DNA from: Nemertoderma westbladi
Lineage: Eukaryota > Animalia > Xenacoelomorpha
Assembly (NCBI GenBank): GCA_032718475.1
Contig: JAUCBJ010008765.1
Span: forward strand, 1 to 35,150
Direction of reading: 5' to 3'
DNA: 35,150 nt
Shown piece after piece: positions 5,524-35,150 of the stretch. Numbering within the stretch: the stretch's first letter is position 1; each line of letters opens with the position of its first letter. Both the position numbers and the translations under genes were made by a program. The notes beneath the pieces were generated by a model. It had not been told where the DNA came from, searched no databases, and was given only the letters and a program-made list of their open reading frames with translations.

Positions 5524-8500
5524 TTACGTTATGGAGTCCCTAGATATTTGTCGGATTAGGGAAGTGGTCGTAGGAAGAGTATCTTGCCTTCCATAGTTTC
5601 CGGACAGTTTTCGGTCTCTTTCCAGTAAACATAAACGACTAGCTGGGCGATTGAGTTGTTGTGTTACTTTCTCCGCTCCCTTGGCCTGTCTAATCTCCGC
5701 CGTGGTAAGATGAGGAGGCCATTCTTCTTCTTCTTTACTTAAGAAGTCGGATCCACCTAACCAGCCTGGAGTATCTATCAGTTCTTGAGGAGTTGCTCCT
5801 CTGGAAGCGATGTCGGCTGGATTAATCGTCCCAAGGCAATGTCTCCATTGATCTACATTGGAGTTAATATCGTCATTATCTGAGGAGTATGGTGTTCCCT
5901 CAGTTGGATCGTCCACATCACTGCTCTCCACTTCCCATTCCTTTACTTGGTATACCTGTTGTTGAGGTAATCTCTCTTTGAGAGTTCTACGGGAAGGGCC
6001 AGTGAAGTACCAACCTACTCTAGTTCTTACCGCATAGGTTTGTAGTGGCTGCGGTTGAGCAGGCCGTTTCTCCAATGTCTCGAGCGCCTCATGCGCGTTT
6101 TGGCCGATGAGTATTTGCACTCCAGGATAATCTGTCTGGAATCGAGGTATCTTAAGCTGTTGGATGCTCTCGTCCTCGTCCCAGTTATAAGGTTCTACTT
6201 GGGTAGTAGCGAAGTTCTTTATAGCCACCATTTTTACTGACCTTATACTTTGTGCTCCTAATTTATCCTGGGGGGTGGACAACGCACCTACATAGTAATC
6301 TGCCGTTATGGTAGATTTCCAAACCTGCATAATTCCGGACATATTCAACTTAGTTTGGAATTTGGGTTGTCCAGCAAAGATATCTTCGGCTAGTTCTTGA
6401 TCGATGAATGTTCCTGTGCTGCCGGAGTCAAGGAGGGCGTTCACTATGTAACTTTTGGTAGGACCGTGAACTCTTACCTGCACTACAGGAAATTCTCTGA
6501 TTCCTACGTTGGAAGTTGGAGCTTTCCAAGATGGTTGTCTGTCAAAGGTAGTTGGGGGGAACTCATTGTCGGTGTCCTTTTCGTAAGTAAGTGCTCGATA
6601 CACCGCGGTATTGATTAGGTAACAGGATTCGTTGGCGTCGGAGAATTCGTCAGTATAGAATCCTTCCATCTCAGACTCTTGATCAGTGTCATTTACATCA
6701 CTGAATTGGACATGTAGTTCGGGCTCACTTACCTGACTCGGGTTGTTTCGTTCGAATTCACTGTGTAACAAGATGTGATGTTTCGCACCGCACTTTGCAC
6801 ACCTTACGTCGGAGTAACAGGTTCGCCGTTGGTGTCCTTGTCTGAGGCAATTATAGCATAACCGCTTATCCCACATGACTTCACGTCTGTCTACCAGGGA
6901 TTTCTTTAGGAATTCAGCACACACACTCAAACGGTGGGGCCCGTCGCACAGCGCACATTTTGGTTTGATGTTACTCACTTTACCTTGGGTAACGTTATGC
7001 ACTCTCGTTCTTTCTTCGGGCTTTCTTCCGTGAATTCTCTTAGGAGACGTAGGAGGAGTTGTTGTTACCTGTTCTCTCCTGTCACTGGTTCGAGACTTAT
7101 ATTTACTTACGTCTTTATAGGTCTTGTTGTCATAGTAAGATTTTGCTGTGTCTTTCCCGCTGTCCTCTTCTTGAGAAGCTTGGCTTTCGCCGTCGTCAGT
7201 ATAACACACTGGTATTATCCTTCTCCTAGAAACGGGTTTCTCACTTACCTTATTTTCCGATGTTTTCTCTCTGGACTGCTTTATGAGTTGTAATTTTACT
7301 TCACTATCTAAGAAGGACATGAGATCAGCCATGGTAGGGCTTCGTCGTTGCTGCTCATTCATATACAACACTTTCTTGTCCCAGCGTGTACATACTCCAC
7401 CCTTTGGTAAAGTAGAGACTACGGCTCCAATAACCATGGAACTCTGATATTCATGAGACTTACCTAACCAGTCCAATTGTCTACAGATCTCCTGAATCTC
7501 ATCGGAAAACTCTATAATCCCGCTACTAAGAAAGTTTCGGGGGGCTACTAATTTTGCATACAAATACTTAGCTATGTTATCCTTGTTACCATACCTGATG
7601 TTTAATGTATCCCAGACTTGTCTTAATCCATCTGGATGTCCAATAAACTTTAACGCCATTAACTTGGGAGGTCCTTCCAAGCACTTGATGAGGAATCTAA
7701 GTTTCTCTCCGTTAGATAGTACAGAGTTCTGTATGCTATCTTTGTAATATTCATTGAAAGGTAACCATTTCATCTCATCTCCATTGAATTTAACGATCTC
7801 TCCCACTTTGACCGCTTGGCGGGCTTCTGTTCTAGCCATCTGACGCGTAAAGCTTTCTTGGGCCATCGTGTTATTTAATATCGAATTATCGGTATATAAA
7901 TTTCTCGGATCATTATCAGGTCTATAGGGAATATCATTAACAACAGGTTTATAATCACCCTTATTAGGGTTTGCTATAGGAGTTTCTACTTCACTAGCAG
8001 TATAGATGCGTGTAGGCTCCACACCTTGCGCATGTAATACTTCAGACCTAACAGGTTGACACAATGTTACTGGGGGTATTGGTATACCCTTTTGTATATT
8101 GACTAATTTGTCGCGTTCTAGCGCGATGCTTTGTTGCACTTCTTGCAATTCTGCCCTACTTTTCCTTACTGTTCCCTTAAGTTGGTGGACAGTCTTCTGC
8201 ATCTGTCCGAGCAGGAGATTCATCCCCCGCCGTCCCTCCTCTACCCACTCGACCGCCGAAGCGGGAGTCGCCAACATTGTAGCGGGCTGACGCGGGACAA
8301 CGGGAGACAAATCTTTGATTTCTCTCTCAGAGTCCAGGACAGGGATTTTCTCATGGACTGTTCTACCGGGTACAGGCAGTGTAGTACTGTGTAAAGGGAA
8401 TTTAGAGTTAAGCTCTGGAAGTACAGGGGTCTCTAGCACAGGAGTGGTTTTGGGAACGACAGGCCTAATTATTTCAGGCTCATCAACTATGGTAGGGAGT

Positions 8501-10131
8501 CTTTTGACCTTAATAATTTGGTCTGCGGGTTCTGTACTACCTAAGTCTGTGCTAGCTAGTTGTCTTCTAACCGCTGGGGGCAAATCAGGCAATTTGTGAC
8601 GGTGAGATGTTTTTCTACGCCTGCTTAGACGAGATCTATTTCCTCCGCCTTCAGGATCGGTGGTCTCGCCTTCCTCCGATGATGTGTATCCTTGCCGTTT
8701 GGGAGTAGATCGACTCATCATCTGCATTTGACTAGCAGTTAACTGTTTATTTATGCAGTCTTGCGTCTCTTGCAGATTTTCCAACTCCAGTTGGGTAGTC
8801 TCCTCAGACGCTCTCCGTTCTGCTTCTGCCACTGCCCTTGTTGCTGCCACAGCCGCTTTTCTTTCCGCTTCTGCTTCCGCCATTGCCGTTGCTACAGTCG
8901 CTTTTCTTTCCGCTTCTGCCTCCGCCATTGCCGCTGCTACTGCCGTTGCCTTTCTGTCTTCTATCCGCCTTTTCTTTACTTGTTCTTCTTGGGCTCTAGC
9001 TATGCGGAGACGTTCATCAAATTTAGCTTGGTTTGCAGCTAGCATTTCAATATCGATTGCGTCCAACACATGCTTGGCTCCTTCACTATTAGGGGAAAGT
9101 CCAGACAGCCGTCTCCTCAACTCTTCGTCTCCTAGGAATCGCTGATAGTCGGACAGATAAATGTCAATAGCGTCTCTAGAGGGCGGCTTCTCTGATGCTG
9201 TCTCTTCGCTTTCCACTTGAGAAAGGGTGGCATCGGTTGGTTCTTCATAGGTTGGTCTCTCAGCCAGCTGGGATTTCCACTGGGCCGTTTCTTGAACTTT
9301 GAGACCTACCCGCTGGAACCAAGTCTTGACAGCAACTTGCAGCGACGTGTCCTGTCTTCTTTTAGAAGTTTCCTCAAAGGCTGATAGGATTAGTCTAATG
9401 CGTAGGGTTCTTTCGCGTACTTGATAAAGCAGCTCTTCCTGCTCTTGAGGTCCTTGGGGTTGTCGAAACAGTTGTTCTTCTAATCGCTCTAAGGAGCCGA
9501 AGAATCCCTGCACATATCCTGCTGCCGACCTCTTCCAAACAGCTGGATCCATCGTATCTTTAGTCACTCCCATCCTGTGTATGTCTTCCCAAGTAGCTTC
9601 GGACAAATCTAACGGGAGTCCGGGTCCGGGAAAGTTCCATTGTGACTCGACAATAGACATCAATTCTTCCCTGGCGTATCCCGCATAACTATCTTGGGTC
9701 GCTCGCTTACTTCTCGCCCAATCGACTTGGTGTTCCTCCACCGCAATCAATATAGTAGTTAGTACTGCGGCAGGAAGGGTGAGAAGGGGATCCGAGTAGG
9801 CTGTAGCCGCCATCTGCACTCCGCGTTCGGGGGTCAGCTCTACAGTATCCGAACTACTGGAGCTATCGGGTCGCTGGGAACAAGTTTCTTGACTAGGATG
9901 TTGCTGCTGTTGGACAGCTGCTTCCTGGTTCCGTTTGACTTGGGCCCGAGTGCCGATGATAGACCTACGGTGTTGGATTAGCCTAGGGTCTGATACTACT
10001 ACTGGAGGGATGACCTTTCTTTCAGTAGGAGGTGAGCTGAACCCCTTTCTTAATCGCTCCACACTCCTATCTGTGTCACAGATGGTTGTATCGATTAGAC
10101 TGTCTGACAGGTTTTGCTGGGTGTCAGACAT
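5524..10131 (-). CDS. gag: BEL/Pao Gag-aspartic protease polyprotein (1535 aa) with only short RNase H and integrase C-terminal remnants
   Basis: Coiled coil, then a DUF1759-like Gag core (KFNGDEMKWLPF...EKLRFLIKCLEG...WDTLNIRYGN). Three BEL-type knuckles: CALCDGPHRLSVC, CYNCLRQGHQRRTC, CAKCGAKHHILLH. Protease ALLDSGST...ILIG. Then QWRH...NPADIASRG...WLGG.DFL...WP (end of RNase H) and RPASRLCLLE (end of integrase). Confidence 0.92.
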   Translation of the reverse strand: MSDTQQNLSDSLIDTTICDTDRSVERLRKGFSSPPTERKVIPPVVVSDPRLIQHRRSIIGTRAQVKRNQEAAVQQQQHPSQETCSQRPDSSSSSDTVELTPERGVQMAATAYSDPLLTLPAAVLTTILIAVEEHQVDWARSKRATQDSYAGYAREELMSIVESQWNFPGPGLPLDLSEATWEDIHRMGVTKDTMDPAVWKRSAAGYVQGFFGSLERLEEQLFRQPQGPQEQEELLYQVRERTLRIRLILSAFEETSKRRQDTSLQVAVKTWFQRVGLKVQETAQWKSQLAERPTYEEPTDATLSQVESEETASEKPPSRDAIDIYLSDYQRFLGDEELRRRLSGLSPNSEGAKHVLDAIDIEMLAANQAKFDERLRIARAQEEQVKKRRIEDRKATAVAAAMAEAEAERKATVATAMAEAEAERKAAVAATRAVAEAERRASEETTQLELENLQETQDCINKQLTASQMQMMSRSTPKRQGYTSSEEGETTDPEGGGNRSRLSRRRKTSHRHKLPDLPPAVRRQLASTDLGSTEPADQIIKVKRLPTIVDEPEIIRPVVPKTTPVLETPVLPELNSKFPLHSTTLPVPGRTVHEKIPVLDSEREIKDLSPVVPRQPATMLATPASAVEWVEEGRRGMNLLLGQMQKTVHQLKGTVRKSRAELQEVQQSIALERDKLVNIQKGIPIPPVTLCQPVRSEVLHAQGVEPTRIYTASEVETPIANPNKGDYKPVVNDIPYRPDNDPRNLYTDNSILNNTMAQESFTRQMARTEARQAVKVGEIVKFNGDEMKWLPFNEYYKDSIQNSVLSNGEKLRFLIKCLEGPPKLMALKFIGHPDGLRQVWDTLNIRYGNKDNIAKYLYAKLVAPRNFLSSGIIEFSDEIQEICRQLDWLGKSHEYQSSMVIGAVVSTLPKGGVCTRWDKKVLYMNEQQRRSPTMADLMSFLDSEVKLQLIKQSREKTSENKVSEKPVSRRRIIPVCYTDDGESQASQEEDSGKDTAKSYYDNKTYKDVSKYKSRTSDRREQVTTTPPTSPKRIHGRKPEERTRVHNVTQGKVSNIKPKCALCDGPHRLSVCAEFLKKSLVDRREVMWDKRLCYNCLRQGHQRRTCYSDVRCAKCGAKHHILLHSEFERNNPSQVSEPELHVQFSDVNDTDQESEMEGFYTDEFSDANESCYLINTAVYRALTYEKDTDNEFPPTTFDRQPSWKAPTSNVGIREFPVVQVRVHGPTKSYIVNALLDSGSTGTFIDQELAEDIFAGQPKFQTKLNMSGIMQVWKSTITADYYVGALSTPQDKLGAQSIRSVKMVAIKNFATTQVEPYNWDEDESIQQLKIPRFQTDYPGVQILIGQNAHEALETLEKRPAQPQPLQTYAVRTRVGWYFTGPSRRTLKERLPQQQVYQVKEWEVESSDVDDPTEGTPYSSDNDDINSNVDQWRHCLGTINPADIASRGATPQELIDTPGWLGGSDFLSKEEEEWPPHLTTAEIRQAKGAEKVTQQLNRPASRLCLLERDRKLSGNYGRQDTLPTTTSLIRQISRDSIT

Positions 10132-12437: not shown

Positions 12438-13629
12438 TGTACGCGCTTTTGAAGACCTTTAGCAGTTTAACCTGCCAAAATTTATATGTCTTTTGGTTTA
12501 TAAATAGACTTTAGTAAATGACAAGTATTTAATACCAATAAACACAACATTAGCCGAAGCCAGCCTAGTGCGCGTCCATTCACCCGCTGGATATACCCGG
12601 GAGACTGGATTCGGAGGGCTTAGATTGTTATTGCAGTGTAAGCTTACTGTATTATTCGATTGATCGTTAATAAATAATTTCTGACAAATATTATTCACTT
12701 TCGGGAAATATTAACAGTTCCTTTAGGACGTGGCGCTCTATCTAGGTAAACAGAGATATGACTTATACTAAACACAACGGTAAGTCGGTAAGGCTTATGA
12801 TTCACGTATGAGGCGCATTCTTTAGGAAATGCTTAGTTATCAGCCACAATCATGCACAACATCGGTACCACACAATACTGCACACTAATCTGCCGACCGT
12901 CAATGAATTTTATCATATATAAAGAGAACAGCAATTGACTCATGTAGTGCCTATCAAATAGCTTTAAACTCACTACAAACCACGATAATATAAGTCGCAA
13001 TCGCTATATGTAACCTGTCTCTCTAACCTGTAGTGTATCAAGAAAATTGGGAAATTTGGGTTCTTTATAGATGTTCTCCAAATAATAATATTCAACCAAA
13101 ACACAACAGTAAAAAGCATTAAGACGGTAGGGTAAGATTATAACAATATAAGATTGTACCGCTGCGCTACTGCGCTGATAAGACTGGACTGATAACAGTT
13201 ATACGCTCTATAATCTAAGCCTACTAATGTTTCTTCTAAAGTCTGAAACGAATTGACTCTAGAGCCGGTGTTCTTGGCCTAGATAGAAACAACACAACTA
13301 TCACAAGAAAAAACAGTAAGACCAAACACTCCTAGCACGATCTGTAGAATATCTCCCCATCGACAGTAAAAATCGCCCTGATTGGCTGTTAAGCTAAACA
13401 AAGAACCATGTGTCCAATGGCCGTTTCCATGCCAGCAAGCAGCTGTTAGATGTCGTAATCTGAATCATCAAGGCTACGCTGTGCTAGAGTATTTGACGCA
13501 TTGCGGGTTTTATGCCTTACCATGTCCGCCAAAGCACACATATAGAAGAATGACTTTTATGTCCGTTAAAACACCTATAACGGTACTTTGCGGGCGAGGG
13601 GACTGATTATATCCGCAAAAGCTTTTACA
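12438..13629 (-). repeat. 5' LTR (1192 bp)
   Basis: TG...CA termini; direct repeat of 1031-2222; lies upstream of gag on the minus strand. Confidence 0.95.
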
Positions 13630-14029
13630 CACTGTATTATTGTATTACTACTGTATTAATTCTTCTGTACTGCTGTATAAATGGATATACTACTATATAC
13701 AGTGTATTATTCCGTATGTGGTATGTCAGTATGAGCACTGCATTGTGCCACTACTGTGCGTGTGCGACTGTGGTGGTACATGGATGATAGGCATGGCAAT
13801 ACCAGTCTGACTGGATTAGGCGTTTCCAGTTAGGGACAAGTACTTTCGACGCCCTATTATTTCAGGGATTATAACTAAGAGAAATAACTGGCCCACTAAA
13901 TTTAGGGGCTTTGCAGCAGCTTAGCGGGTCGTATCTATAGTAGGTCATGGTTGTTGTGGGGCGAGCCACGAAGTTGGCGGAGCCTTAGCGAATTGACACT
14001 GTTAGGGGGTGGGTCAATTTATGCAAATA

Positions 14030-20984: not shown

Positions 20985-21674
20985 AGTAGTAATGGTTTGC
21001 CCATTTCGGCGACAGTTAGTCCTACTTCGCACCTTGGGTGTTAAGTAGGTCATTAATTAATTAAAAAATTAATTAATTGGTCGATTAAACAATTAATTAA
21101 TTGTTTAATCAATCGATTTGTATCAAATAATGTTGCCAAAGGCAATTTAATTTGATAAAAATCAATCATATAGGGACGCGAGATGAATAAATTGTACTAC
21201 AGCAAATGAAATATACAATACAATAGGCACTGTGCAATACAATATACAGTACATTTGTATTATTTTTGTCGTACAATAGGTAAAGGTAGAATGAAATATA
21301 AAGCCGCGAGCGGGGCCCAAAACATAAATTACCCTTTCAAGAAAATAAAATGGACCAGTTTGGCCCTGGTTCAATCCCTCAATAATCTGCGGCCGTTTGG
21401 GCTCTTATTAGACGTAGCATGACTAACCCCATCATTGAATCCTATGTTGAGTTATACTGCATGTCAACGTTGGGCTGCCACACATTTTAAATTATTTAAA
21501 TTATCATTCGTTATCATGTCAGACCATTGTCAATTCGCCAGAGAAATTAGAATAAACATCTGGTCTTGCAATAGATTGCATTCTTTCGCATTGTGTTGCG
21601 AAGCAGTCCGCGCATTAGCTCAGTAGATACTGCAGTTTTATGTTTGAAGTAATGCATAACCCCTCGTGCTTGCC
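20985..21674 (+). repeat. Left TIR of Maverick 1 (~690 bp)
   Basis: Inverted copy at 28343-29048; diverged direct copy from 29251, with similarity extending to ~21801/30106. Confidence 0.85.
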
Positions 21675-21802
21675 ATACCATGCCTAAAATATTTGTTCAG
21701 ATACTCTAGTATAACATTAATTAACATACTCATTCATTACACGCACTTTTCTCCAGCGCACTCCCTGCTTTTCAAATCACCCCATTTCCCATCCTAACTA
21801 AC

Positions 21803-21916: not shown

Positions 21917-22167
21917 CCTCACCTTCACCCACTTTATTGTCAAACAGCCTAAGAAAATTATAATAAACATCTGGTTTACAATAGATTATTCTTTTTTCAC
22001 AACTCCATTCTAGCCTCCCTCTATAATAGCCCCCATTCACCGCATTCCCATTCATTCTCTAATTTTATTTTTAAAAGTTTTATTTATTTTCATAAAAGTT
22101 TTATTTATTTAAAATTTTGTAAAATCATTCAGCGAAAATTCATAATATCAATTGACATTGCTATATA

Positions 22168-23136
22168 ATGCCTAGTTATGAAAGATGTTTGGTTTGTAAT
22201 AAAGAAATGAGACAAGACAATCTATCTCGTCATATGGAAACACATAGAAAGGATAAACTAATGGATCCATTACCAAAGAAATTTAAAAAATCCGAAGATA
22301 TTTTTAGTGAAGAAGAAAAGAAAAAGAGAGTTGAGCGTGATATATTAAAGATAAAACAGACAATGGAAAATAAATTTCATAAAGTTATGAATATTTTGAA
22401 AGGGATACAAAAACAGTTACCCCTAGAAAATGATGAGAATTTGAGTGAGAAAGATGAAGAAGAAGAGGACGATGAGATGGAGAATGAAAATAGTGAGGGT
22501 CAAGATGAAGTTGAAGAGAGTGAGGTTGAGAACGAAGTGAGTGAAGGTCATGAAGATGACGAAGAAAGTGAAGGTCAGGAAGAGGGTGAAGAAAGCGAAG
22601 GTCAGGAAGAGAATGAAGAAAATGAAGAACAGGAAGAGGATGAAGAAAGTGAAGAACAGGAAGAGGATGACGAAAGTGAAGGTCAGAAAGAGGATGAAGA
22701 AAGTGAAGGTCAGGAAGAGGACGAAGAAAGTGAAGGTCAGGAAAGTGAAGAAGATGATGAAAATGATAATAATAAGGAAATATTGAGACAATTACTTGGA
22801 AATAAGAATAAATTGCGGAAAATTATTAAACATTTAGAAGAGAATGATGAAAATAAAGAAGAGATATTGAGACAAATATTAGGAAACAAAAATCAAATGC
22901 GGAAATTTATTAAACAAATGGAAGAAAACGAGGAAAATAGAGAAGAGATATTAAGACAGGTTTTGGGAAATAAAAGTAAATTATTGAAAATTAATGAACA
23001 ATTGAATAAAATTAAGAAACCGTTGGTTAATGAGGAAGATGAAAGTAAAGAAAATCAACCAGCTTTTACTTATTTTCGAAGACCTATGACAGCAAACTCT
23101 CGTACAGTATTTGCCCGCGCAGGCGGACGCTATTGA
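22168..23136 (+). CDS. Maverick accessory protein: N-terminal C2H2 zinc finger, long acidic repeat tract, three helical repeats
   Basis: Intact 322-aa ORF. CLVCNKEMRQDNLSRHMETH; KKFKK NLS-like motif; ~10-aa EESEGQEEDE-type repeats; EILRQxLGNK three times. Confidence 0.85.
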   Translation: MPSYERCLVCNKEMRQDNLSRHMETHRKDKLMDPLPKKFKKSEDIFSEEEKKKRVERDILKIKQTMENKFHKVMNILKGIQKQLPLENDENLSEKDEEEEDDEMENENSEGQDEVEESEVENEVSEGHEDDEESEGQEEGEESEGQEENEENEEQEEDEESEEQEEDDESEGQKEDEESEGQEEDEESEGQESEEDDENDNNKEILRQLLGNKNKLRKIIKHLEENDENKEEILRQILGNKNQMRKFIKQMEENEENREEILRQVLGNKSKLLKINEQLNKIKKPLVNEEDESKENQPAFTYFRRPMTANSRTVFARAGGRY

Positions 23137-23511
23137 CATTTGTTTGTTTGAGTTCCTTTCATAATAGTATTAGGACTATTTATCCATAACAATTATATTG
23201 GTATTAGGAGTATTTATCCTTAATTATTATTAGTATTATAAATGTATTTGCCAACAATATTTATTGCTATTAGGTCTATTTATTCAAGAAATTATATGTT
23301 TTTTATAATATATTTTGGAAAATTAGCCGACTAAGTCATAATTTTTAAAACTTTAAATAAGGGTGGAGTTATTTTATAAAGTTAAGAAGAGTGAATCAAT
23401 GGAGGCAACATGAAGTCTAATCTCTTGCCCTTTACTCATAAGACCGCACATTAACTCCCAAGGTTGCATACTATCACTATAGCTGGGAGAGTCAAAGCTA
23501 GTGTACAGGAA

Positions 23512-26500
23512 TGAGGAAGTGAGGGAGTGAGGGAAGTGAGGGAGTGAGTGAGGGAGTGAGGGAAGTGAGGGAAGTGAGGGAAGTTAGGGAAGTGAGGGAG
23601 TGAGGGAAGTGAGGGAAGTGAGGGAAGTGAGGGAAGTGAGGTAAGTGAGGGAAGTGAGGGAAGTGAGGCAGTGAGGGAAGTGAGGGAGTGAGGCAGTGAG
23701 GGAAGTGAGGGAAGTGAGGGAAGTGAGGCAGTGAGGCAGTGAGGGAAGTGAGGGAAGTGAGGCAGTGAGGGAAGTGAGGGAAGTGAGGGAAGTGAGGGAA
23801 GTGAGGGAGTGAGGGAAGTGAGGGAAGTGAGGGAAGTGAGGGAAGTGAGGGAGTGAGGCAGTGAGGGAAGTGAGGGAAGTGAGGGAAGTGAGGGAAGTGA
23901 GGGAAGTGAGGGAAGTGAGGGAAGTGAGGGAAGTGAGGGAAGAAGTGAGGGAAGTGAGGCAGTGAGGGAAGTGAGGGAAGTGAGGGAAGTGGGGGAAGTG
24001 AGGGAAGTGAGGGAGTGAGGGAAGTGAGGGAAGTGAGGGAAGTGAGGAAAGTGAGGGAGTGAGGCAGTGAGGGAAGTGAGGGAAGTGAGGGAATAAGTGA
24101 GGGAAGTGAGGCAGTGAGGGAAGTGAGGGAAGTGAGGGAGTGAGGCAGTGAGGGAAGTGAGGGAAGTGAGGGAAGTGAGGGAGTGAGGGAAGTGAGGGAA
24201 GTGAGGGAAGTGAGGGAAGTGAGGGAAGTGAAGGAAGTGATGGGAGTGAGGGAAGTGAGGGAGTGAGGGAAGTGAGGGAAGTGAGGGAGTGAGGGAAGTG
24301 AGGGAAGTGAGGGAAGTGTGGGAAGTGAGGGAAGTGAGGGAAGTGAGGGAAGTGAGGGAGTGAGGGAAGTAAGGGAAGTGAGGGAAGTGAGGGAAGTGAG
24401 GGAGTGAGGGAAGTGAGGGAAGTGAGGGAAGTGAGGGAAGTGAGGGAGTGAGGCAGTGAGGGAAGTGAGGGAAGTGAGGGAAGTGAGGGAAGTGAGGGAA
24501 GTGTGGGAAGTGAGGGAAGAAGTGAGGCAGTGAGGGAAGTGAGGTAAGTGAGGGAAGTGAGGGGAGTGAGGGAAGTGAGGGAAGTGAGGGAAGTGAGGGA
24601 AGTGAGGGAAGTGAGGGAAGTGAGGGAGTGAGGGAAGTGAGGGAGTGAGGGAAGTGAGGGAGTGAGGGAAGTGAGGGAAGTGAGGGAAGTGAGGCAGTGA
24701 GGGAAGTGAGGGAGTGAGGCAGTGAGGGAAGTGAGGGAAGTGAGGGAAGTGAGGCAGTGAGGCAGTGAGGGAAGTGAGGGAAGTGAGGCAGTGAGGGAAG
24801 TGAGGGAAGTGAGGGAAGTGAGGGAAGTGAGGGAAGTGAGGGAGTGAGGGAAGTGAGGGAAGTGAGGGAAGTGAGGGAAGTGAGGGAGTGAGGCAGTGAG
24901 GGAAGTGAGGGAAGTGAGGGAAGTGAGGGAAGTGAGGGAAGTGAGGGAAGTGAGGGAAGTGAGGGAAGTGAGGGAAGAAGTGAGGGAAGTGAGGCAGTGA
25001 GGGAAGTGAGGGAAGTGAGGGAAGTGAGGGAAGTGAGGGAAGTGAGGGAAGTGAGGGAAGTGAGGGAGTGAGGGAAGTGAGGGAAGTGAGGGAAGTGAGG
25101 GAAGTGAGGGAGTGAGGCAGTGAGGGAAGTGAGGGAAGTGAGGGGAAGTGAGGGAAGTGAGGCAGTGAGGGAAGTGAGGGAAGTGAGGGAGTGAGGCAGT
25201 GAGGGAAGTGAGGGAAGTGAGGGAAGTGAGGGAGTGAGGGAAGTGAGGGAAGTGAGGGAAGTGAGGGAAGAAGTGAGGGAAGTGAGGCAGTGAGGGAAGT
25301 GAGGGAAGTGAGGGAAGTGAGGGAAGTGAGGGAAGTGAGGGAAGTGAGGGAGTGAGGGAAGTGAGGGAAGTGAGGGAAGTGAGGGAAGTGAGGGAGTGAG
25401 GCAGTGAGGGAAGTGAGGGAAGTGAGGGAAGAAGTGAGGGAAGTGAGGCAGTGAGGGAAGTGAGGGAAGTGAGGGAGTGAGGCAGTGAGGGAAGTGAGGG
25501 AAGTGAGGGAAGTGAGGGAGTGAGGGAAGTGAGGGAAGTGAGGGAAGTGAGGGAAGTGAGGGAAGTGGGGGAAGTGGGGGAAGTGAGGGAGTGAGGGAAG
25601 TGAGGGAAGTGAGGGAAGTGAGGAAAGTGAGGGAGTGAGGCAGTGAGGGAAGTGAGGGAAGTGAGGGAAGAAGTGAGGGAAGTGAGGCAGTGAGGCAGTA
25701 AGGGAAGTGAGGGAAGTGAAGGAAGTGATGGGAGTGAGGGAAGTGAGGGAGTGAGGGAAGTGAGGGAAGTGAGGGAGTGAGGGAAGTGAGGGAAGTGAGG
25801 GAAGTGTGGGAAGTGAGGGAAGTGAGGGAAGTGAGGGAAGTGAGGGAAGTGAGGGAGTGAGGGAAGTAAGGGAAGTGAGGGAAGTGAGGGAAGTGAGGGA
25901 GTGAGGGAAGTGAGGGAAGTGAGGGAAGTGAGGGAAGTGAGGGAGTGAGGCAGTGAGGGAAGTGAGGGAAGTGAGGGAAGTGAGGGAAGTGTGGGAAGTG
26001 AGGGAAGAAGTGAGGCAGTGAGGGAAGTGAGGGAAGTGAGGGAAGTGAGGGGAGTGAGGGAAGTGAGGGAAGTGAGGGAAGTGAGGGAAGTGAGGGAAGT
26101 GAGGGAAGTGAGGGAGTGAGGGAAGTGAGGGAGTGAGGGAAGTGAGGGAGTGAGGGAAGTGAGGGAAGTGAAGGAAGTGAGGGAAGTGAGGGAGTGAGGG
26201 AAGTGAGGGAAGTGTGGGAAGTGAGGGAAGTGAGGGAAGTGAGGGAAGTGAGGGAAGTGAGGGAAGTGAGGGAAGTGAGGGAGTGAGGGAAGTGAGGGAG
26301 TGAGGGAAGTGAGGGAGTGAGGGAAGTGAGGGAAGTGAAGGAAGTGAGGGAAGTGAGGGAGTGAGGGAAGTGAGGGAAGTGAGGGAAGTGAGGGAAGTGA
26401 GGGAAGTGATGGAGTGAGGGAAGTGAGGGAAGTGAGGGAAGTGAGGGGAGTGAGGGAAGTGAGGGAGTGAGGGAAGTGAGGGAAGTGAGGGAAGTGAGGG

Positions 26501-26605
26501 AAGTGAGGGTAGTGAGGGAAGTGAAGGAAGTGAGGCATAGTGAGGGAAGTGAGGGAAGTGAGGGAGTGAGGGAGTGAGGCAGTGAGGCAGTGAGGCATAG
26601 TGAGG
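23512..26605. repeat. ~3.1 kb purine-rich 9-bp satellite (GAGGGAAGT)n with 8-bp variants GAGGGAGT and GAGGCAGT
   Basis: Direct reading; rare variants recur ~1.5 kb apart (24231/25719 and 24370/25867). Confidence 0.97.
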
Positions 26606-27011
26606 TGTGCCAAGTTGTTATATTTGAACCAGGACTATATACGAGTGTAGAAGCCATTATTAATAAAACAATCAACAAATTGATCACCCGAAGTGGCCCC
26701 AAATTCAATATTTCAAATACTCAAATAAAATCGAACTCGCTACTTCGCAACACTTTTCTTTTGAAATTACTGGAGATTTGATTACAATACTCGGTTTTGA
26801 GGAGTTTACGCAGGATTATGATCCGAGGGATGTACCTTATCTAGCTAATTGGTATGATTATTGGAGTGTAAATGTTAGTGGATTTGGCTCTTTAACATTC
26901 AAACAGCAACCGGAACAGCGTGCTCATTTTAGAGGGATACAGTATATTGAGAGACAGTATAATCTCAGACAGTATAGTATAAAGCTATACAAACAGTATA
27001 TAATCACCTGA
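26603..27011 (+). pseudogene. Frameshifted fragment resembling a Polinton/Maverick minor capsid (penton) protein
   Basis: VVIFEPGLYTSVEAIINKTINK...GPK joins, with a 1-nt frameshift near 26704, to QYFKYSNKIEL...FEITGDLITILGF. This matches the remembered PGxYx(6)IN...LxxILGF pattern of Polinton minor capsids. Motif-level recognition only. Confidence 0.5.
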
Positions 27012-27430
27012 ATAATACAAAAACATATACAGTATAATGATATAGTATAATCAATCGAGTTAATTTTACTTATAATTCAATAAACTAAGCAATCTGTATC
27101 ATCAATAGAAAACGCATAAACATATCGTCAATCGGAAATTTCTAATATGTCACAGTTATAGGCAGTATAAATCTTTATTCGTTCTGAAATTATTTCTTCA
27201 TAGTCATCAACGCTGGCGCCAAGGCAGATGGTGGTGGTTTCCTTTACCTGATTGTCTAGTGCTTCCTAACCTGTATAATTCAACAAAGTTTAAAGTTTTT
27301 ACTGTGTGTGTCTTTTTCATAGCCTATGTTAAATCAAATTACATTCATGTAACTATTATAACATTTATATTATAAAATGGATATGGTGAGGGATTGAACT
27401 TATTGTTACTTGTTTAATTTACCTTGTCAA

Positions 27431-27778
27431 TTAATCCCACGCTTCTTCTCTCCATTCTTTTTCTATGCCCCATGCTTCTTCTCTCCATTCTTTTTCTATG
27501 CCCCATGCTTCTTTCGGCCATTCAACGCTAGGGTTTTCGGTTTTGATTTGTTCTTCTTCTTTTATTTTTTCGTGAATGGACTTCCCATTTCGATACTGAC
27601 AGTATCTTAAATGGTATTGTTTTTCTTCCTCGGGAAAGTAATGGCATTGGATGTTTGGGCATTGAACTATTTTTTCACCTGGATAATTTCTTCTACATTT
27701 TCTTAAATGTTTGATAAATCATTCTACATGGATTCTGTGGGTTGTTTCATATGGGCATATTATATACTCATTATCCAT
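27431..27778 (-). pseudogene. GTSF1: GTSF1/Asterix-like protein (two CHHC U11-48K-type zinc fingers plus Trp-rich acidic tail), intronless, with one in-frame stop
   Basis: Manual translation: MDNEYIICPYETTHRIHVE*FIKHLRKCRRNYPGEKIVQCPNIQCHYFPEEEKQYHLRYCQYRNGKSIHEKIKEEEQIKTENPSVEWPKEAWGIEKEWREEAWGIEKEWREEAWD. Both fingers are C-x5-H-x9-H-x3-C. The TGA at 27721-27719 sits at the Arg of the conserved RF motif. Confidence 0.85.
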
Positions 27779-28342
27779 TATAAAAAGTATATGATAAACT
27801 ATATTGTATTTTATATTGTATATTATAAAATTGTTAATTTAATTACTAATAATAATTATTACCTTAGTGAATATTGAATGAATATAGTGAATATTGAATG
27901 AATATAGAGAAGTGGTTTATTATATTATATTAAAGTAATACTCAATCTAAGGCTTATTTATCGACAAATAAATTTATTATAATATATTAACATTTGATGT
28001 ATTTTATTTTTTAGATTTACCAAAATCACGCACTATAATAGAATAATAACTAACTAACTTATCCATCACAATCACAACAGAATAATAACAATAAAAGTTC
28101 GAAAGTACACCCTGCATCCTATGTGTAGCCTTGTATGGGCATATACAGTAATATAATCACTGTTATCCATAGTATCAAAAAGACAAACTTAACTTGAAAG
28201 AAAAATTAACTTGATAGAAAACTTAGTTTAAGTGAGGATTTAATTTAAAAGAAAACTTCACTTTAACGTTTTTTAGAGATAATGATTTAACTTTACATGA
28301 TTTTTATTTATATAGAAAGGTCCAGGCCGTAGTTTTCGGCAA

Positions 28343-29048
28343 GGCAAGCATGAGGGGTTATGCATTACTTCAAACAAAAAAAAAAACTACAGTTTCTACT
28401 GTAGTATAGAGATGGTAGGGGATTAAATTGACACATGGTATTTGGGTATTGGCTTTGTCAATGAGCTAATACGCGCGTAGGCTGCTTCGCAACACAATGC
28501 GAAAGAATGCAATCTATTGCAAACCAGATGTTTATTCTAATTTTCTTATGTGAAAGAATGCAACATTGCTATATAATGCCTAGTTATGAAAAATGCATGG
28601 TCTGACATGATAACGAATGATAATTTAAATAATTTAAAATGTGTGGCAGCCCAACGTTGACATGCAGTATAACTCAACATAGGATTCAATGGTGGGGTTA
28701 GTCATGCTACGTCTAATAAGAGCCCAAACGACCGCAGATTATTGAGGGATTGAACCAGGGCCAAACTGGTCCATTTTATTTTCTTGAAAGGGTAATTTAT
28801 GTTTTGGGTCCCGCACGCGTCTTTTTATTTCATTCTATTATTCCATTGTACGGCAAAAATAATACAAATGTACTGTATATTGTATTGCACAGTGCCTACA
28901 GTATTGTATATTTCATTTGCTGTAGTACAATTTATTCATCTCGCGTCCCTATATGATTGATTTGTGTCAAATTAAATTGCCTTTGGCAACATTATTTGAT
29001 TCAAATCGATTGATTAAACAATTAATTAATTGTTTAATCGACCAATTA
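28343..29048 (-). repeat. Right TIR of Maverick 1, lacking about 90 terminal bp
   Basis: Reverse complement of ~21074-21674 with small insertions. The ORF track shows the mirrored ORFs MNQGQTGPFYFL at 21374(-) and 28750(+). Confidence 0.85.
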
Positions 29049-30572
29049 GCCTACACTGCAATAACTTTCTCTATAACCGAATCCAGATTTAATCCATGCC
29101 ATTCAACCAATAGGAACAGACTGAAGTAATTTTCCTGTGTCCATGCTGATTACTCATGTATAGATCCCAGCTCTGATGCCTACTTGCAAGTTGGAACGCC
29201 AGACCAGTGCTGACGTAGACTTGTCAAGCCTACTGTATACGATAGGTGTGAGTAGTAAGAGTATACCCTTTTCGGCAACAGTTGGACCTACTTCGCACCT
29301 TAGGTGTTAAGTAGGTCATTAATTAATTAAACAATTAATTAATTGGTTGATTAAACAATTAATTAATTGTTTAATCGATTGATTTGTATCAAATAATGTT
29401 GCCAAAGGCAATTTAATTTGACACAAATCAATCAGATAGGGACGCGCGATGAATAGATTGTACTACAGTAGATAAAATATATAATACAATAGGAACAATA
29501 ATACAATATACAATACTTTTGTATTATTTTTGTCACACAATAGAATGATAGAATGAAATAAAAAGATGCGAGCGGGACCCAAAACATAAATTACCCTTTC
29601 AGGAAAATAAAGTGGGCTAGTTTGGTCCTGGTTCAGTCCCTCAATAATCTGAGGCTGTTTGGGCTCTTATTAGACGTAGCATGGCTAATCCCATTGAATC
29701 CTATGTTGAGTTATACTGTATACCAACATGGGGCGGGGCTGCCACGAATTTTAAATTATTTAAACCTCCAGCTTCATTATCATGTAGACCATTGTCAAAT
29801 CGCCTGAGAAATTACAATAAACATCTGGTTTGCAATAGATTGACTTCTTTCACATTGTACAGTACTTTATGATGCAGCCCGCGCACATGTTAAATTAATC
29901 CCCAACCATTTCTATACTAGATACTGTAGTTTTTTGTTTGAAGTAATGCACAATCCCCTCCACTTATACAATGCCTAAAATATTTGTTCAGATGCTGTAG
30001 TTTAACATTAATTAACATACCCAATCTAACGCAGCAGTCCATTACATACACTTTTCTCCGGCACACTCCCTGCTTCTCAAATCACCCCATTTCCCATCGT
30101 AACTAATGTTTTACATTTAATTAACCCAATGAAATGTGTTTATTATTCCCACAATCCAATAGCATGTCTCTCTCTCTTTTTTTATTTCTATTGGTTCCCC
30201 CAAGCTTCACTTTTATTTTCATTGGTTACCCTTTCCCTTATAAACCCCCATCCATCGCTTTAAACTTTACTTACAAAAATATTATCGACCATCTTACTTT
30301 TTATTTAAAGTTATAATACATTTATTGTTATACATAATATATTGTTATGAAACATTTTTTATAACATCAATGTGATTTGATTTTCCTTCTTATTATTCCT
30401 AATCGAGCAATTTTCTTTTCCAACACCACGAATCAATCTGCAGGTAAGAACAATAAATTTGTATTTTTATGAATTCGTTTAGTATTAACATTATTGCCTC
30501 AAAATAAAAACAACCCCGCGAAACCTTCCCAAACTTATTATTATTATTTAGTTTTTTTATTTTATAGCAAAC

Positions 30573-30628
30573 ATGCCTAGATCATCAAAATTCGTTGACT
30601 GTCCTGTCTGCAATAAGAACATGCGAGT
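30573..30628 (+). pseudogene. Truncated paralog of the 22168 C2H2 gene
   Basis: MPRSSKFVDCPVCNKNMR versus MPSYERCLVCNKEMR; similarity stops before the His residues. Preceded by a GT-AG intron-like segment at 30444-30567. Confidence 0.6.
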
Positions 30629-31556
30629 AGTAGGAGAAGCATAGTTCTGAACGAACTCCTCCCTAGCTTGGGCTACGGCTCGCATCTCGGAGGCAATTTA
30701 AAAATGCCAAATTCCGGTGCTAAATCGTGGTGTTTAATGACCATCTGTCACCATCAATATTGATTCGCGTCGTTGCCTTCAACCAATCGTTGCTTATCAC
30801 CTACGCGTAGCCTAACCTCGCGATGCCTACCTTACTCGACAACTGTTACCACCCGCGAGTATTGATTCGCGTCGTTGCATCAACCAACCATCGCATATTC
30901 ATCTTCGCGTAACCTAACTTATCATCGCATGGCTAGCCCCCACTACGCTATTATATTATATCGAATCGATTGCCAACTCACCACCACCACCACCACCGTC
31001 GCTAGCCACGCACGGCTACTCCTCGACGGCTGTCGCCAAACCAATCAATCCAACCAACCAAGCGGTCTGCCTACCCCAACGCTATTATGATACGTGTTGA
31101 AATTCCGCCACGTTCTAGCTACACGTATACGAATATTTCCATAGTTATTTCCTATCCACGCAACCAACCACTGTATACTGTATATGCTGACAACGTGGCC
31201 ACTACACGCATCACGCATATATTATGTTATATTGATTGCCAACTCCACGACTGCTGTCGCCAAATCAACAAACCAACTAGTATGATACATGAGATTCCGT
31301 CACGTTCTAGCTACGCGTATACGAGCATTAGTGATTATTACGCAATAATTTTTTTGTTTATACAGTAGTTACCCACCAGCTAATCAACCAATCAATAAAC
31401 CGAATTTAGGCTATTTCTCAGTTTAAGACCTGTATTATTTTTGAAAATATCTTATATATATAATCTCTTGCTTTAATCGCAATTAATCATTTGTAATGGT
31501 TTTAGTTTAAAAGTTTTTACTTTGTTTGTTTGATTTACAATAAAATAAATTAAATA

Positions 31557-31995
31557 ATGTCTTCTGATTCCAATATGGTTATGCCAATGGTAAGGCATTC
31601 ATTTTTTGCAGAAGATGGTCAAGCCTATATTGTTATTGATTATACAATTTACCGTCAGGGAGATGATAAATATAAAATTGAGAAAAGCCAGGAAAGTTTT
31701 AAGCTCAATTGATATTGATGCTTCTGATAATAGTATTCATCTTTTAGATTACAACCTGAAAGCTGAGCATGGGGGAGGAAAATTAAGCAACATTTTACTA
31801 TTATCCATGATAGAGGGATTTATTGTTATTACACAATACAACGAAGCTGGTGAAAAGTTTGAAATACAGCTAAATCGGCATAGCCCCTACGAAATTATGT
31901 CTTTCTTTATTGTAATGATTTCAAAAGAATCCTTTGTCGAACCTGAAGAATCAGCGGATAATGTTGAATATGTTGATAATATCATTGATTCTTGA
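31557..31995 (+). pseudogene. Maverick ORF of unknown function, probably with one frameshift
   Basis: The ATG-initiated frame MSSDSNMV...GQAYIVIDYTIY (31557) overlaps the TTG-called ORF 31606-31995; both are flanked by AT-rich spacers. Confidence 0.45.
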
Positions 31996-32160
31996 CTTTT
32001 CCCTCTATATTATAAATATTTTATGATTATATATAAAATTTTGTTGTTTTTAAATAATCGAAAATTGTAGTAGTATTTGTATATACAGTATAACAGTTTT
32101 GTTTGTTGTTGTTGTTGTGTATTGTGGTAATTATTTTCAATTTACTTTAAAATTTGGAAA

Positions 32161-32613
32161 ATGGATATTTTAAATGAAAAATGTCCAGTTTGCTATTCTA
32201 AGTTATTGCAACAACATCGAGATTATTATAAATGTGAAAATAAACATGCAACTTGCGTACAATGTATTGCACAATATTCCGAAATGAATAATTATTGTTC
32301 TAAAATTTGTCCTATTTGTCGCGCACCCATATCTAAGTTTAATATAAAGTTGGCAAGATACCAACCCTATTATTGGAAAGAGCTTCGCAATATAACTTAT
32401 ATTTCTGCGAAAAGTAATGATCCGGGAGATTTATTTACAATATTGGAGAATATTTTTTATAGAAACGTAGTACGACGCTGTTGCTACTATATTCCTTATT
32501 TTTTTAGCAGCGAACATAAAAAAATCATTAGCGCGAAATTTTCGGGAAGTGATTTCCAATCCGCCGATGTTACCTATCATTATTTCGCGTATAAAGATGC
32601 TCACCATGCTTGA
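32161..32613 (+). CDS. RING-finger (C3HC4) protein, putative E3 ubiquitin ligase
   Basis: Intact 150 aa: CPVC...CENKHATCVQC...CPICR. Confidence 0.85.
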   Translation: MDILNEKCPVCYSKLLQQHRDYYKCENKHATCVQCIAQYSEMNNYCSKICPICRAPISKFNIKLARYQPYYWKELRNITYISAKSNDPGDLFTILENIFYRNVVRRCCYYIPYFFSSEHKKIISAKFSGSDFQSADVTYHYFAYKDAHHA

Positions 32614-32829
32614 AATTACATCGGTCTATACTATAATTGGAAATAGCACCTTTTGCTGCAGCGAGCGTCACATACTGTAGCGGCGTCGTATGTTAATTAA
32701 ATATACAGTACTCTAATATTGTAGTTGCATCAATTATTGTTATATACATAGTAATGGTGTTGGTTTATTGATATTGATATTGATATTATATTATATTGTA
32801 TTGTTGATATATCTTAATAATAATAATAA

Positions 32830-33080
32830 ATGGCTGACTTTAATTCAGGTCCATATAATTTAAATTTTCAAATGGGAACGAGTATGATAATTTCAGGGCC
32901 ATCTGGCTCCGGAAAGTCTACATTTGTTGGCAATTTAATTAAACACAAGAATGGTTGTTTCAACGAAGCCCCCTTGCGAGTATTGTATTGTTACGGGAGC
33001 AATCCCCCGACTATTCCAGGTATTACTCACCTTTACAAAGGCTTGCCTGAAAATATAGATAGTTTAGTGAATGGCTTGGT
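32830..33080 (+). pseudogene. N-terminal part of a Polinton/Maverick A32/FtsK-like packaging ATPase, disrupted by LINE insertion
   Basis: Walker A IISGPSGSGKST, then F...P.RVLYCYG...YKGLP as in Maverick ATPases. It breaks at GLV, where Walker B (hhhhDD) is expected. Confidence 0.85.
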
Positions 33081-35150
33081 CAGGTCAGGTATTCTAGGTC
33101 ATTGATCAAGAAAACTTGCCACCCCCATGCAGCATAAAGGAGGTGCCACCTGTAGCTGCATAGACCCTCTTACTAGGGCAAATTTGGTCCTGTAACTAGG
33201 ACCCCCTTCGTTCTGGGATAAGGACGCCCTTGGTCATGGATTAAGGACCCATATACTTGGCTGCAGGGGTATATGGCCTGACCAGGCAGATGGTGATCTA
33301 CCAATGGCTGGTCAGGAGTAGAGTGTTCTCATGTCCACTCTGAGAGCACTTCACTGCGACCTGCACCTGGCAGCAAGGGTACAGGGCATGACCCAGCAGA
33401 TGAGCTGCAACAGCCAATGGTGGTTCATGTGCGCCAGAGTAGATATGGGTGATGGGCCTCATATCTGACTCCATTGCGACACCCACCCTGTGGAATGGCA
33501 AACCAGGGTGTGGTATTTGCCCCGAGAGCTGACTCGGCAAAAAAGCACCCCCCAACCCCCACTATGGATTACATTAGCAATGCGGAGGTCCGGCCACTAG
33601 AGGCCAGTGGAATTACCGGACACAATCGGCCTCACAGGCGTCAGTTAACTCCTGACCGGCTGCGTGTCTCACCCCCTACTGGAGAGAGAGCAGCCAACAA
33701 TTCTTTGAGTCCCTTTCCTGATGACCTTTCTGGCCCAAACCCTGGGTCACCAGGAAGGCCAGATTGTGATGGGGAGAGGGATTCTGGAGTTGGAGGCTAC
33801 TCTCATGTTCCACCCCGACCAACAAAGCCATTGGTGAATCTGAGGCAAGTCACAAGACTAGCCTCAGTAAACACCCTAACACTCGGATCCCCAATGCGAC
33901 AAGGTGAGCTGACTGCCTTGGCAGATAAGCTTTCTCTTAGCGCAGTGGGTGTTCAAGAGCACCGAATGCAGACTGGACAGACTGATGAGGTTCTGATTAA
34001 GGACATGGGGGGCGGTTGGCGACTCGCCCTCGCGTCAGCAGATGATAGTGGCAATGGTGGAATTGGTCTATTAATGAATCCAACTGCACATGCAGCATTG
34101 GACAAAATAGACCAAATCTCTAACCGCATCATCCGTTGCCACTTCTCATGTTCTGGAAGACTGGCTAAGAAGTTTCCTAAGGTGGTTCTGATTGTGTGCT
34201 ACTCTCCAACTAGTGTTGCCCCTGTAGAGGAGGTGGAAAATTTCTACCACAATCTACAAGCAGCTACTGATGGAGTGGATCAGCATGCATTCTTAACATT
34301 CCTGGGAGACTTTAATGCAAGTCTGCATCAATCACCTACATCGCCCTGGGTCTATAGCAATAGTGTTAACCGAAATTCTGTCCATCTTCAGGATTTTATC
34401 TCTGGAAATGGATTGTTTTCGGCTGGAACCCAGTTCAAGAAGCGAACTGGAAAGCTATGGACTCATAGTGGACCCAGTGGTCACAAGTCCCAGATAGACC
34501 ATATTCTGTTTCGTAGGAAATACAGGAGCTCATTACAAGACTGTAATGCATTTACACTTCGACCCTTCTCCAGTGATCACCGCCTTATTGTGGCCAAGGT
34601 AAGACTTAGTCTGCGTGCTAGCAGAACAACGAAATCTGCCTTGCCGCGGCATGACTGGTCCTCTCTGCTGCAACAGCCAAGTGTGAGATCCAGCTTCACA
34701 CTACAGCTGAGGAACAGGTATGAGGCTCTTGCCTCTGAGGTGTCAGATCACTGTGAGGGCTATACTGCCTTTACAGAAGCAGTTAAGTTAGCAGCTGCAG
34801 AAACAGTTCCTGTATACCCTCGAAACAGGAAAAGGGCCCCCTGGACTGACAACAAAATTCAGAAGTGCCGAAATGACCTTCATAAGGCGCAGAAAGAGTC
34901 CCGACTCAAACAGACTACAGCAGCCAAGAATGCAGTTAAGGCTGCATCTAGGTCCCTGAACAGGCAGTACTCTGCTAATCTACAGGAGCTAATAAACCAA
35001 CAGGTTGATGCCATCAATGATGCTGACGACAGCAGGCAATCATCCCAGGCATGGAAATCGATCAATCTGCTTACTGGGCGGAAAAGCCAACCAACCACCA
35101 AGGTTAAGGCTGAATCACCAGCCGATCGCCTCAATGGTTGGAAAGCCCAC
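33078..35150 (+). mobile_element. RTE-clade non-LTR retrotransposon, 5' part (5' boundary approximate)
   Basis: Abrupt rise in GC at ~33078, a ~400-bp leader, then a single long ORF starting with an AP endonuclease. Confidence 0.88.
33495..35150 (+). CDS. RTE LINE ORF (APE endonuclease domain; RT expected beyond the window), 3'-partial
   Basis: Frame open from ATG 33495 (alternative 33564) to the window end. Motifs: ASVNTLTL, GVQEHR, GGIGLL, ISNRII, CYSPT, LGDFNA, QIDHIL, SDHRLI, LRNRYEAL. Absent from the ORF track because there is no stop in the window. Confidence 0.92.
   Translation, partial: MANQGVVFAPRADSAKKHPPTPTMDYISNAEVRPLEASGITGHNRPHRRQLTPDRLRVSPPTGERAANNSLSPFPDDLSGPNPGSPGRPDCDGERDSGVGGYSHVPPRPTKPLVNLRQVTRLASVNTLTLGSPMRQGELTALADKLSLSAVGVQEHRMQTGQTDEVLIKDMGGGWRLALASADDSGNGGIGLLMNPTAHAALDKIDQISNRIIRCHFSCSGRLAKKFPKVVLIVCYSPTSVAPVEEVENFYHNLQAATDGVDQHAFLTFLGDFNASLHQSPTSPWVYSNSVNRNSVHLQDFISGNGLFSAGTQFKKRTGKLWTHSGPSGHKSQIDHILFRRKYRSSLQDCNAFTLRPFSSDHRLIVAKVRLSLRASRTTKSALPRHDWSSLLQQPSVRSSFTLQLRNRYEALASEVSDHCEGYTAFTEAVKLAAAETVPVYPRNRKRAPWTDNKIQKCRNDLHKAQKESRLKQTTAAKNAVKAASRSLNRQYSANLQELINQQVDAINDADDSRQSSQAWKSINLLTGRKSQPTTKVKAESPADRLNGWKAH

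Follow-up and report, generated by a model that had tools for sequence, protein, structure and literature searches.

GTSF1 is a protein that animals require for silencing transposons, and the genes of the piRNA pathway evolve fast, with the role of transposons as drivers being debated. What, then, is a GTSF1-like frame doing inside a transposon, and on which side would its product act? This question was raised by a short minus-strand frame in a contig of Nemertoderma westbladi (JAUCBJ010008765.1), of which a stretch of 35,150 nucleotides, hereafter the window, was analysed. The frame and its parts are as follows.

27431..27778, minus strand: GTSF1/Asterix-like frame, intronless, 115 codons, ATG at 27778, stop ending at 27431
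27695..27757, minus strand: CHHC finger 1, codons 8-28, exact C-x5-H-x9-H-x3-C
27599..27661, minus strand: CHHC finger 2, codons 40-60, four ligands kept, core changed
27434..27520, minus strand: acidic Trp tail with six Trp and three W-x4-W units, a 33-bp in-frame tandem repeat

An earlier note on this DNA had described an intronless minus-strand frame of 115 codons with two exact CHHC fingers, the C-terminal end EEAWD and one TGA, and our reading agreed with it on each point. The internal TGA, at codon 20 (27719-27721), breaks the window copy, and the frame was read with X at this codon for protein comparisons. The double C-x5-H-x9-H-x3-C unit occurred once in the window and in 0 of 300 dinucleotide-block shuffles of the window, indicating that it is not a product of chance. 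When the sequences of the PDB were searched, the best match was mouse Gtsf1 (6x46, residues 5-103, E 1.2e-9), with silkworm GTSF1 of 9nhb next (E 3.1e-7), whereas the match to U11-48K was far weaker (E 0.004) and covered one finger; an identity as U11-48K or TRM13 was rejected. With the Pfam profile zf-U11-48K, which the earlier note had proposed for a check, finger 1 reached 21.0 bits, just below the cut-off of 21.1, and finger 2 was unmatched. Scanned in full with HMMER, a set of 1.84 billion representatives yielded 345 matches at E <= 0.001, none at 1e-10, and the names present for nine clusters among 20 matches looked up were those of GTSF1, CHHC-domain or uncharacterised animal proteins. 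Judged by sequence, the closest family of the frame is GTSF1/Asterix, as had been claimed, and a best match outside GTSF did not occur.

A structure model of the protein was confident over residues 1-60 (pLDDT 84-95) when built on a 57-sequence alignment, composed of the query and 56 short sequences picked by length from the best 150 of the 345 matches; the single-sequence fold was unusable (pLDDT 48.6). Foldseek with the model returned mouse Gtsf1 first and the GTSF1 of the SIWI complex next, an agreement that is not independent of the GTSF1 alignment. In a tree obtained by a quick search (137 rows, 61 columns), the protein had no supported sister and an end branch of 0.54 against a median of 0.2, and no donor can be named for these reasons. 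An apparent tunicate-like motif was noticed, which gave no grouping with the query.

The frame lies between the arms of an inverted repeat, designated element 1, which is followed by a sister element 2. Their features are as follows.

20985..21680, plus strand: left terminal inverted repeat of element 1, beginning AGTAGT
22168..23136, plus strand: ORF of 322 aa with a weak C2H2 finger and acidic and coiled repeats (zf-C2H2 E 0.05, below cut-off)
23508..26605, no strand: minisatellite of 3.1 kb, 9-bp unit, 349 copies
26605..26938, plus strand: frameshifted high-copy coding remnant with weak viral-cluster matches
27136..28166, no strand: 1031-bp cassette holding the GTSF1-like gene, with a head-to-tail joint of its ends in two runs
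28338..29048, minus strand: right arm of the inverted repeat of element 1, lacking its outer ~88 bp in the window copy
29251..33105, plus strand: sister element 2, AGTAGT start at 29251, left repeat 82% like that of element 1 over 869 columns
32161-32613, plus strand: RING-like ORF within sister element 2
32830-33105, plus strand: P-loop ATPase fragment of element 2 (Pox_A32-like Atlas clusters), followed by a LINE

The arms of element 1, about 590-700 bp long, are 88.6% complementary overall and 97-98% in their core blocks, and their length falls inside the Maverick range of tens to about 1500 bp. AGTAGT at 20985 and 29251 opens a repeat shared by the two elements; neither an ACTACT end nor a target-site duplication is readable in element 1 because its right tip is lost. 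The marks of Mavericks are described as (AGT)2 ends and long inverted repeats, with accessory ORFs flanking the core modules (PMC8097293), and the GTSF1-like gene is located in such an accessory position, ~560 bp inside the right arm of the 8-kb element 1. Searches of element 1 gave no frame for a polymerase, integrase or major capsid protein, and 22168..23136 is its sole long non-repetitive ORF. Element 1 is a Maverick-like non-autonomous derivative and not an intact Maverick. Of the placement of the gene between the terminal inverted repeats of a Maverick, the flanking inverted repeats stood, while the element proved to be an 8-kb gene-poor copy whose right arm is ~88 bp short. The GC3 of the frame (0.30) fits the ORFs of the element (0.25-0.35) better than the retroelements of the window (0.43-0.45), and no poly(A) tract was found in the 330 nt downstream of the frame.

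The remnant at 26605..26938 matched unnamed viral clusters weakly (score 0.90-0.91) and had no Pfam match; it may resemble a Maverick minor capsid gene. For the ATPase fragment of element 2, the nearest named Atlas clusters were Pox_A32-like (score 0.96), with the family on 18% of members, which makes the assignment a lead; three further checks for relatives confirmed none. The minisatellite is purine-rich, and three minus-strand frames in it are open for more than 1000 codons each, most likely an artefact of the unit. In the right arm, positions 28563-28604 duplicate 42 bp from the beginning of the finger-and-acidic ORF (22155-22196), 90% alike and in the orientation of that ORF. A similar first ORF containing Cys begins in element 2 (30574-30630) and is cut off after ~20 codons, where another AGTAGT lies (30626). 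Directly 3' of the ATPase fragment of element 2, a LINE-type endonuclease ORF occupies 33495-35150 (plus strand). Elsewhere in the window, a minus-strand ORF of 1535 aa (5524-10131) contains DUF1759 and a protease, and presumably belongs to a BEL/Pao-type retroelement; it is flanked by direct repeats that are identical and at least 300 bp long (1033-1332 and 12440-12739) and enclosed by inverted arms at 317-447 and 13828-13949.

Relatives were also sought in other collections. Word-index protein searches gave no relative at near or longer lengths, which is weak evidence. Viral contigs contained no relative of the GTSF1-like protein, and four motif matches were all chance ones by translation and profile search; a repeat motif was likewise unmatched there, and no locus was found for the ATPase fragment or the remnant at 26605-26938. 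The one match in metagenomes was due to chance and lay in an unrelated prokaryotic ORF, and the viral fold library held nothing at E <= 0.001 for the protein. These viral and metagenome negatives say little because few animal genomes are in those collections.

Does the gene occur in other copies? Four public DNA runs of one organism (three samples from three studies) were used, and their contigs were aligned to window positions 26650-29300. Two of the runs, X2 and X3, are one sample, yet they have unlike depth ratios; the samples may be pools, and contig depth is no copy number. With this reservation, the summed depth over the gene was 260-411, 1345-2734, and 359-445 in X1, X2, and X3, respectively, against 31, 45, and 27 in the flank bin 29142-29230; the fourth run had a depth of 0-9 over the gene and 0 in that bin. 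The gene was found at roughly 10-60 times the flank depth in three of the four runs (two samples), and single gene positions were covered by 4-7 contigs in each of X1-X3. The simplest reading is that the GTSF1-like gene is present in several copies.

At codon 20, all seven covering contigs (four runs) read a sense codon, and the stop is therefore private to the window copy or an assembly error. The origin of the stop as CGA>TGA at a CpG, which the earlier note had suggested, was rejected, since the letter in the seven contigs differs from the one that the CpG route requires. The X1 contig nearest to the window had 3 differences in 223 places. A lone, nearly identical retrocopy, which had been considered as an alternative origin, was not what we found: several distinct contigs exist, the poly(A) tract is absent from the 330 nt downstream, and codon 20 is a sense codon elsewhere, so that a single processed pseudogene was rejected.

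All eight listed pieces that lie wholly inside the frame were free of gaps, with up to 16 differences in 169 nt (9%), whereas 11 of 12 listed near-flank pieces were gapped; one listed piece straddles frame and flank. These counts rest on 32 listed of 1570 pieces and 12 listed of 66 indel rows, and the listed pieces correspond to about four distinct haplotypes, which are not independent. AT-rich flanks easily gain gaps. The pattern in frame and flank is a hint, and no test, of selection on the frame, and other copies probably maintain the gene. Apart from the loss of one 33-bp unit (joint 27442-27476), no length change was listed for the frame, and some copies accordingly have one tail unit fewer.

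In X1 and X2, a joint from 28166 to 27136 connects the ends of the 1031-bp cassette head-to-tail, which indicates a tandem duplication of the cassette or a circle. A direct repeat behind this joint was rejected, as none was found between the ends and 127 of 300 shuffles scored as high. Another joint, from 27457 to 28284 in X3, represents copies with most of the gene deleted. Between the gene and the inner boundary of the right arm, depth was level, and it was low at the junction 26939-27100; the deletion joints tie the gene region to sequence beside the right arm, and other copies run on into the right repeat. Among the listed contigs none spanned both gene and repeat, and no autonomous element carrying the gene was seen. 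The copy in the window is either dead, being broken at codon 20, or mis-assembled there, and it sits on an element that is not autonomous. Just upstream of the ATG, an AT-rich stretch of 142-145 bp (27780-27925) is missing in many copies (three runs) and present in others, a variation that may alter the promoter of the gene.

Subsequently, the fingers and the tail were compared with relatives, namely the 136 proteins with the exact double spacing among the best 150 of the 345 HMMER matches; the other 14 were left out. All eight zinc-finger ligand positions (C/H) are kept, and the linker between the fingers has 11 residues, as in 122 of the 136 relatives. Finger 1 is typical of the family and has basic residues in the columns of mouse K36 and, just past the finger, K39. 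The column of mouse R26 holds His, and Arg stands there in just 24% of these relatives; the column of mouse R29 is the broken codon 20 and was left unscored. Of the RNA-binding basic positions of mouse GTSF1, three are scorable here and two of these are kept. In mouse GTSF1, R26, R29, K36, and K39 are reported to be needed for RNA binding and faster PIWI cleavage (PMC9385479). In finger 2, Asn-Ile is found where the relatives carry F/Y (96%) and N (85%), and neither residue is shared by any of the 136 (best 150 of 345). The top identity to any of them was 50% over 42 finger columns.

The tail contains six Trp, located 26-53 residues past finger 2, against 0-3 in the first 70 residues in the 118 relatives (same best 150 of 345) with a tail of at least 50. 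These six Trp result from the in-frame tandem repeat, which has a 33-bp unit in 2.4 copies (27436-27513). The spacing W-x4-W occurs three times in the tail and in 0 of 136 relatives from the best 150, and is equal to that of mouse W107-W112. Mutation of mouse W98, W107, and W112 is described to weaken PIWI binding more than 60-fold, the maximal rate not being lowered (PMC9385479). Of the double-CHHC layout with an acidic Trp tail that had been noted earlier, tail and ligands were confirmed, whereas finger 2 departs from the F/Y-N core and the tail turned out to be a 33-bp repeat. A short tail that stops just after a Trp is also reported for silkworm Gtsf1L, which activates Ago3 (PMC10711660, PMC9808576); such a tail is therefore no sign of a decoy in itself. 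GTSF1 paralogues are described as PIWI-selective (PMC10711660, PMC9385479, PMC9808576), and paralogues in hosts as common (PMC9539491).

To explain these features, we tentatively propose, at somewhat less than an even chance, that the element-borne protein competes with host GTSF1 for PIWI-piRNA complexes and thereby blunts silencing. A host GTSF1 would have been captured long ago via an RNA copy, as suggested by the missing intron, and capture with amplification inside the element is likely. The captured frame may have been kept open in other copies by purifying selection, to which the gap pattern points, and it is reasonably probable that the gene encodes a selected protein. The repeated W-x4-W units could give tighter or multivalent PIWI binding, and the changed finger 2 might fail to deliver full cofactor function. 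The protein with the multiplied tail would then displace host GTSF1 on PIWI-piRNA, silencing would be weaker, and the element would gain. The bolder form of this proposal, in which the GTSF1 mimic of this Maverick family, with its multiplied PIWI-binding tail and a gene cassette able to expand, is a dominant competitor that switches off piRNA silencing as an element-encoded protein suppressor, appears possible and somewhat doubtful.

Competition is preferred because the PIWI-binding part is multiplied, the conserved part is altered, and weaker silencing profits the element. It is weakened by the retention of the eight ligands, of the 11-residue linker and of two of the three scorable basic positions, and by the activity of silkworm Gtsf1L, whose short tail is similar. 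Furthermore, a global PIWI block would also free rival transposons and could cost the host fertility, some copies have lost most of the gene, and an autonomous carrier was not seen. The same observations can be read as neutral cargo, that is, a GTSF1 retrocopy that inserted into one element and multiplied along with a successful non-autonomous family, its protein being inert. This would account for a broken copy in a gene-poor element and for the deletion variant, as tandem repeats and cassette duplications can arise with no selection; besides, four of five listed coding positions that set the window apart from nearly all contigs change the protein, as decay predicts. We consider it rather unlikely, given that the eight coding pieces are gap-free at up to 9% divergence, that the length change in the frame is one of the repeat, that all ligands are kept, and that the poly(A) tract is absent. 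That the protein is a working cofactor, an active GTSF1 paralogue boosting PIWI slicing against competitor transposons or limiting germ-line harm, is in our view unlikely. It would suit the family-typical finger 1 with its basic residue after the last ligand and the confident model of residues 1-60 with mouse Gtsf1 as the top match, which depends on the GTSF1 alignment, and it has a parallel in the short-tailed, Ago3-activating Gtsf1L of silkworm and in the PIWI selectivity of paralogues; on the other hand, the core of finger 2 is unlike that of all 136 relatives from the best 150, and an element would probably profit little from strengthening the system that targets it.

The captured sequence could also act as RNA, making piRNAs that silence host GTSF1 mRNA. 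Captures of nxf2, piwi, and aub fragments in Drosophilid telomeric elements are proposed to work in this manner, one captured piece being amplified to 7-8 copies (PMC13534243), and the 1031-bp cassette has a head-to-tail joint too. However, these captures are fragments of 140-235 bp, and targeting is described as nearly nil at ~80% identity (PMC13534243), whereas a whole frame is kept here with a best protein identity of 50% over the finger columns (best 150 of 345); this route is judged quite improbable. Finally, the gene might be no cargo at all and belong to an array of host GTSF1 paralogues, one member of which was engulfed or mis-assembled between the repeat arms. None of the listed contigs reaches from the gene into the repeat, depth is low at the junction 26939-27100, the arms are 88.6% alike overall, and host paralogues are common (PMC9539491), all of which would fit; nevertheless, the level depth between the gene and the inner boundary of the right arm, the deletion joints reaching arm-side sequence and the 97-98% complementarity of the arm cores make such an array very unlikely. 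Among the listed joints and loose ends, no intron-bearing copy was found at 80% identity or more, which speaks against the RNA route.

The competition proposal was then set beside known systems. The element resembles Mavericks/Polintons in its (AGT)2 left end, its inverted repeats of several hundred bp and its repeat-adjacent accessory ORF, and in the P-loop ATPase fragment of sister element 2 (PMC8097293, PMC10748475); unlike those described there, element 1 measures 8 kb and has neither polymerase, integrase and major capsid frames nor the right tip. GTSF1 as cargo of Mavericks receives no mention in the accounts consulted (PMC8097293, PMC10748475), PMC11125864 contains both GTSF1 and Polinton as separate mentions, and a search of mainly open-access literature found no description of a Maverick or virus with a gene for GTSF1. 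The closest precedent is in Drosophilid telomeric retrotransposons: TART-A is reported to carry a captured fragment of nxf2 (PMC7785250), and for piwi or aub, seven more captured fragments of 140-235 bp are described, which act via piRNAs (PMC13534243). Here as there, part of a piRNA-pathway gene, in some cases amplified, is located in a transposon and interpreted as counter-defence; unlike those fragments with 76-95% identity and a piRNA route, the whole frame found here in a virus-like DNA element suggests action through a protein. The earlier note knew of no description of such a capture, which held for GTSF1 in a Maverick in the literature searched but overlooked this precedent by the RNA route (PMC7785250, PMC13534243). 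A similar case is VANC: VANDAL elements of Arabidopsis are DNA transposons with this accessory gene, whose protein is proposed to act against host silencing (PMC6719617). In contrast to the GTSF1-like protein, VANC acts in plants on the DNA methylation of its own family, and the account in PMC6719617 does not present it as copied from a host silencing factor.

The counter-defence cases in these sources are plant proteins (PMC6719617) or RNA-level tricks (PMC13534243). Apparently new here is a whole GTSF1-like gene in a Maverick-like element; the capture of piRNA-pathway sequence by transposons was already known. Such a gene supplies a concrete protein for existing PIWI slicing assays. If it were an inhibitor, one would have direct evidence for an arms race between proteins at the catalytic step of PIWI; an activator would be as surprising, as a parasite would supply part of the host defence. 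In addition, the naturally multiplied Trp tail and the altered finger 2 offer a way to tell the binding parts of GTSF1 from the activating ones.

Compared with GTSF1/Asterix itself (mouse 6x46 and the SIWI complexes 9nhb/9nhc), the protein shares two N-terminal CHHC fingers at the family spacing, the 11-residue linker, the basic patch past finger 1 and an acidic Trp tail, which is short and Trp-ended as in silkworm Gtsf1L. It differs in being located in a mobile element, intronless and apparently multi-copy, in its six Trp made by tandem repeat, and in a finger 2 that departs from the F/Y-N core, a core that is typical of the family and not defining. Two observations were made on other members of the family. 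An unnamed protein of 156 aa (P0003) contains two GTSF1-like first fingers, each of which is followed by a different Cys/His motif. Two CHHC proteins of a cricket, each of 134 aa (P0088 and P0156), are 13 locus tags apart, probably on one contig, and might be element-borne or in tandem.
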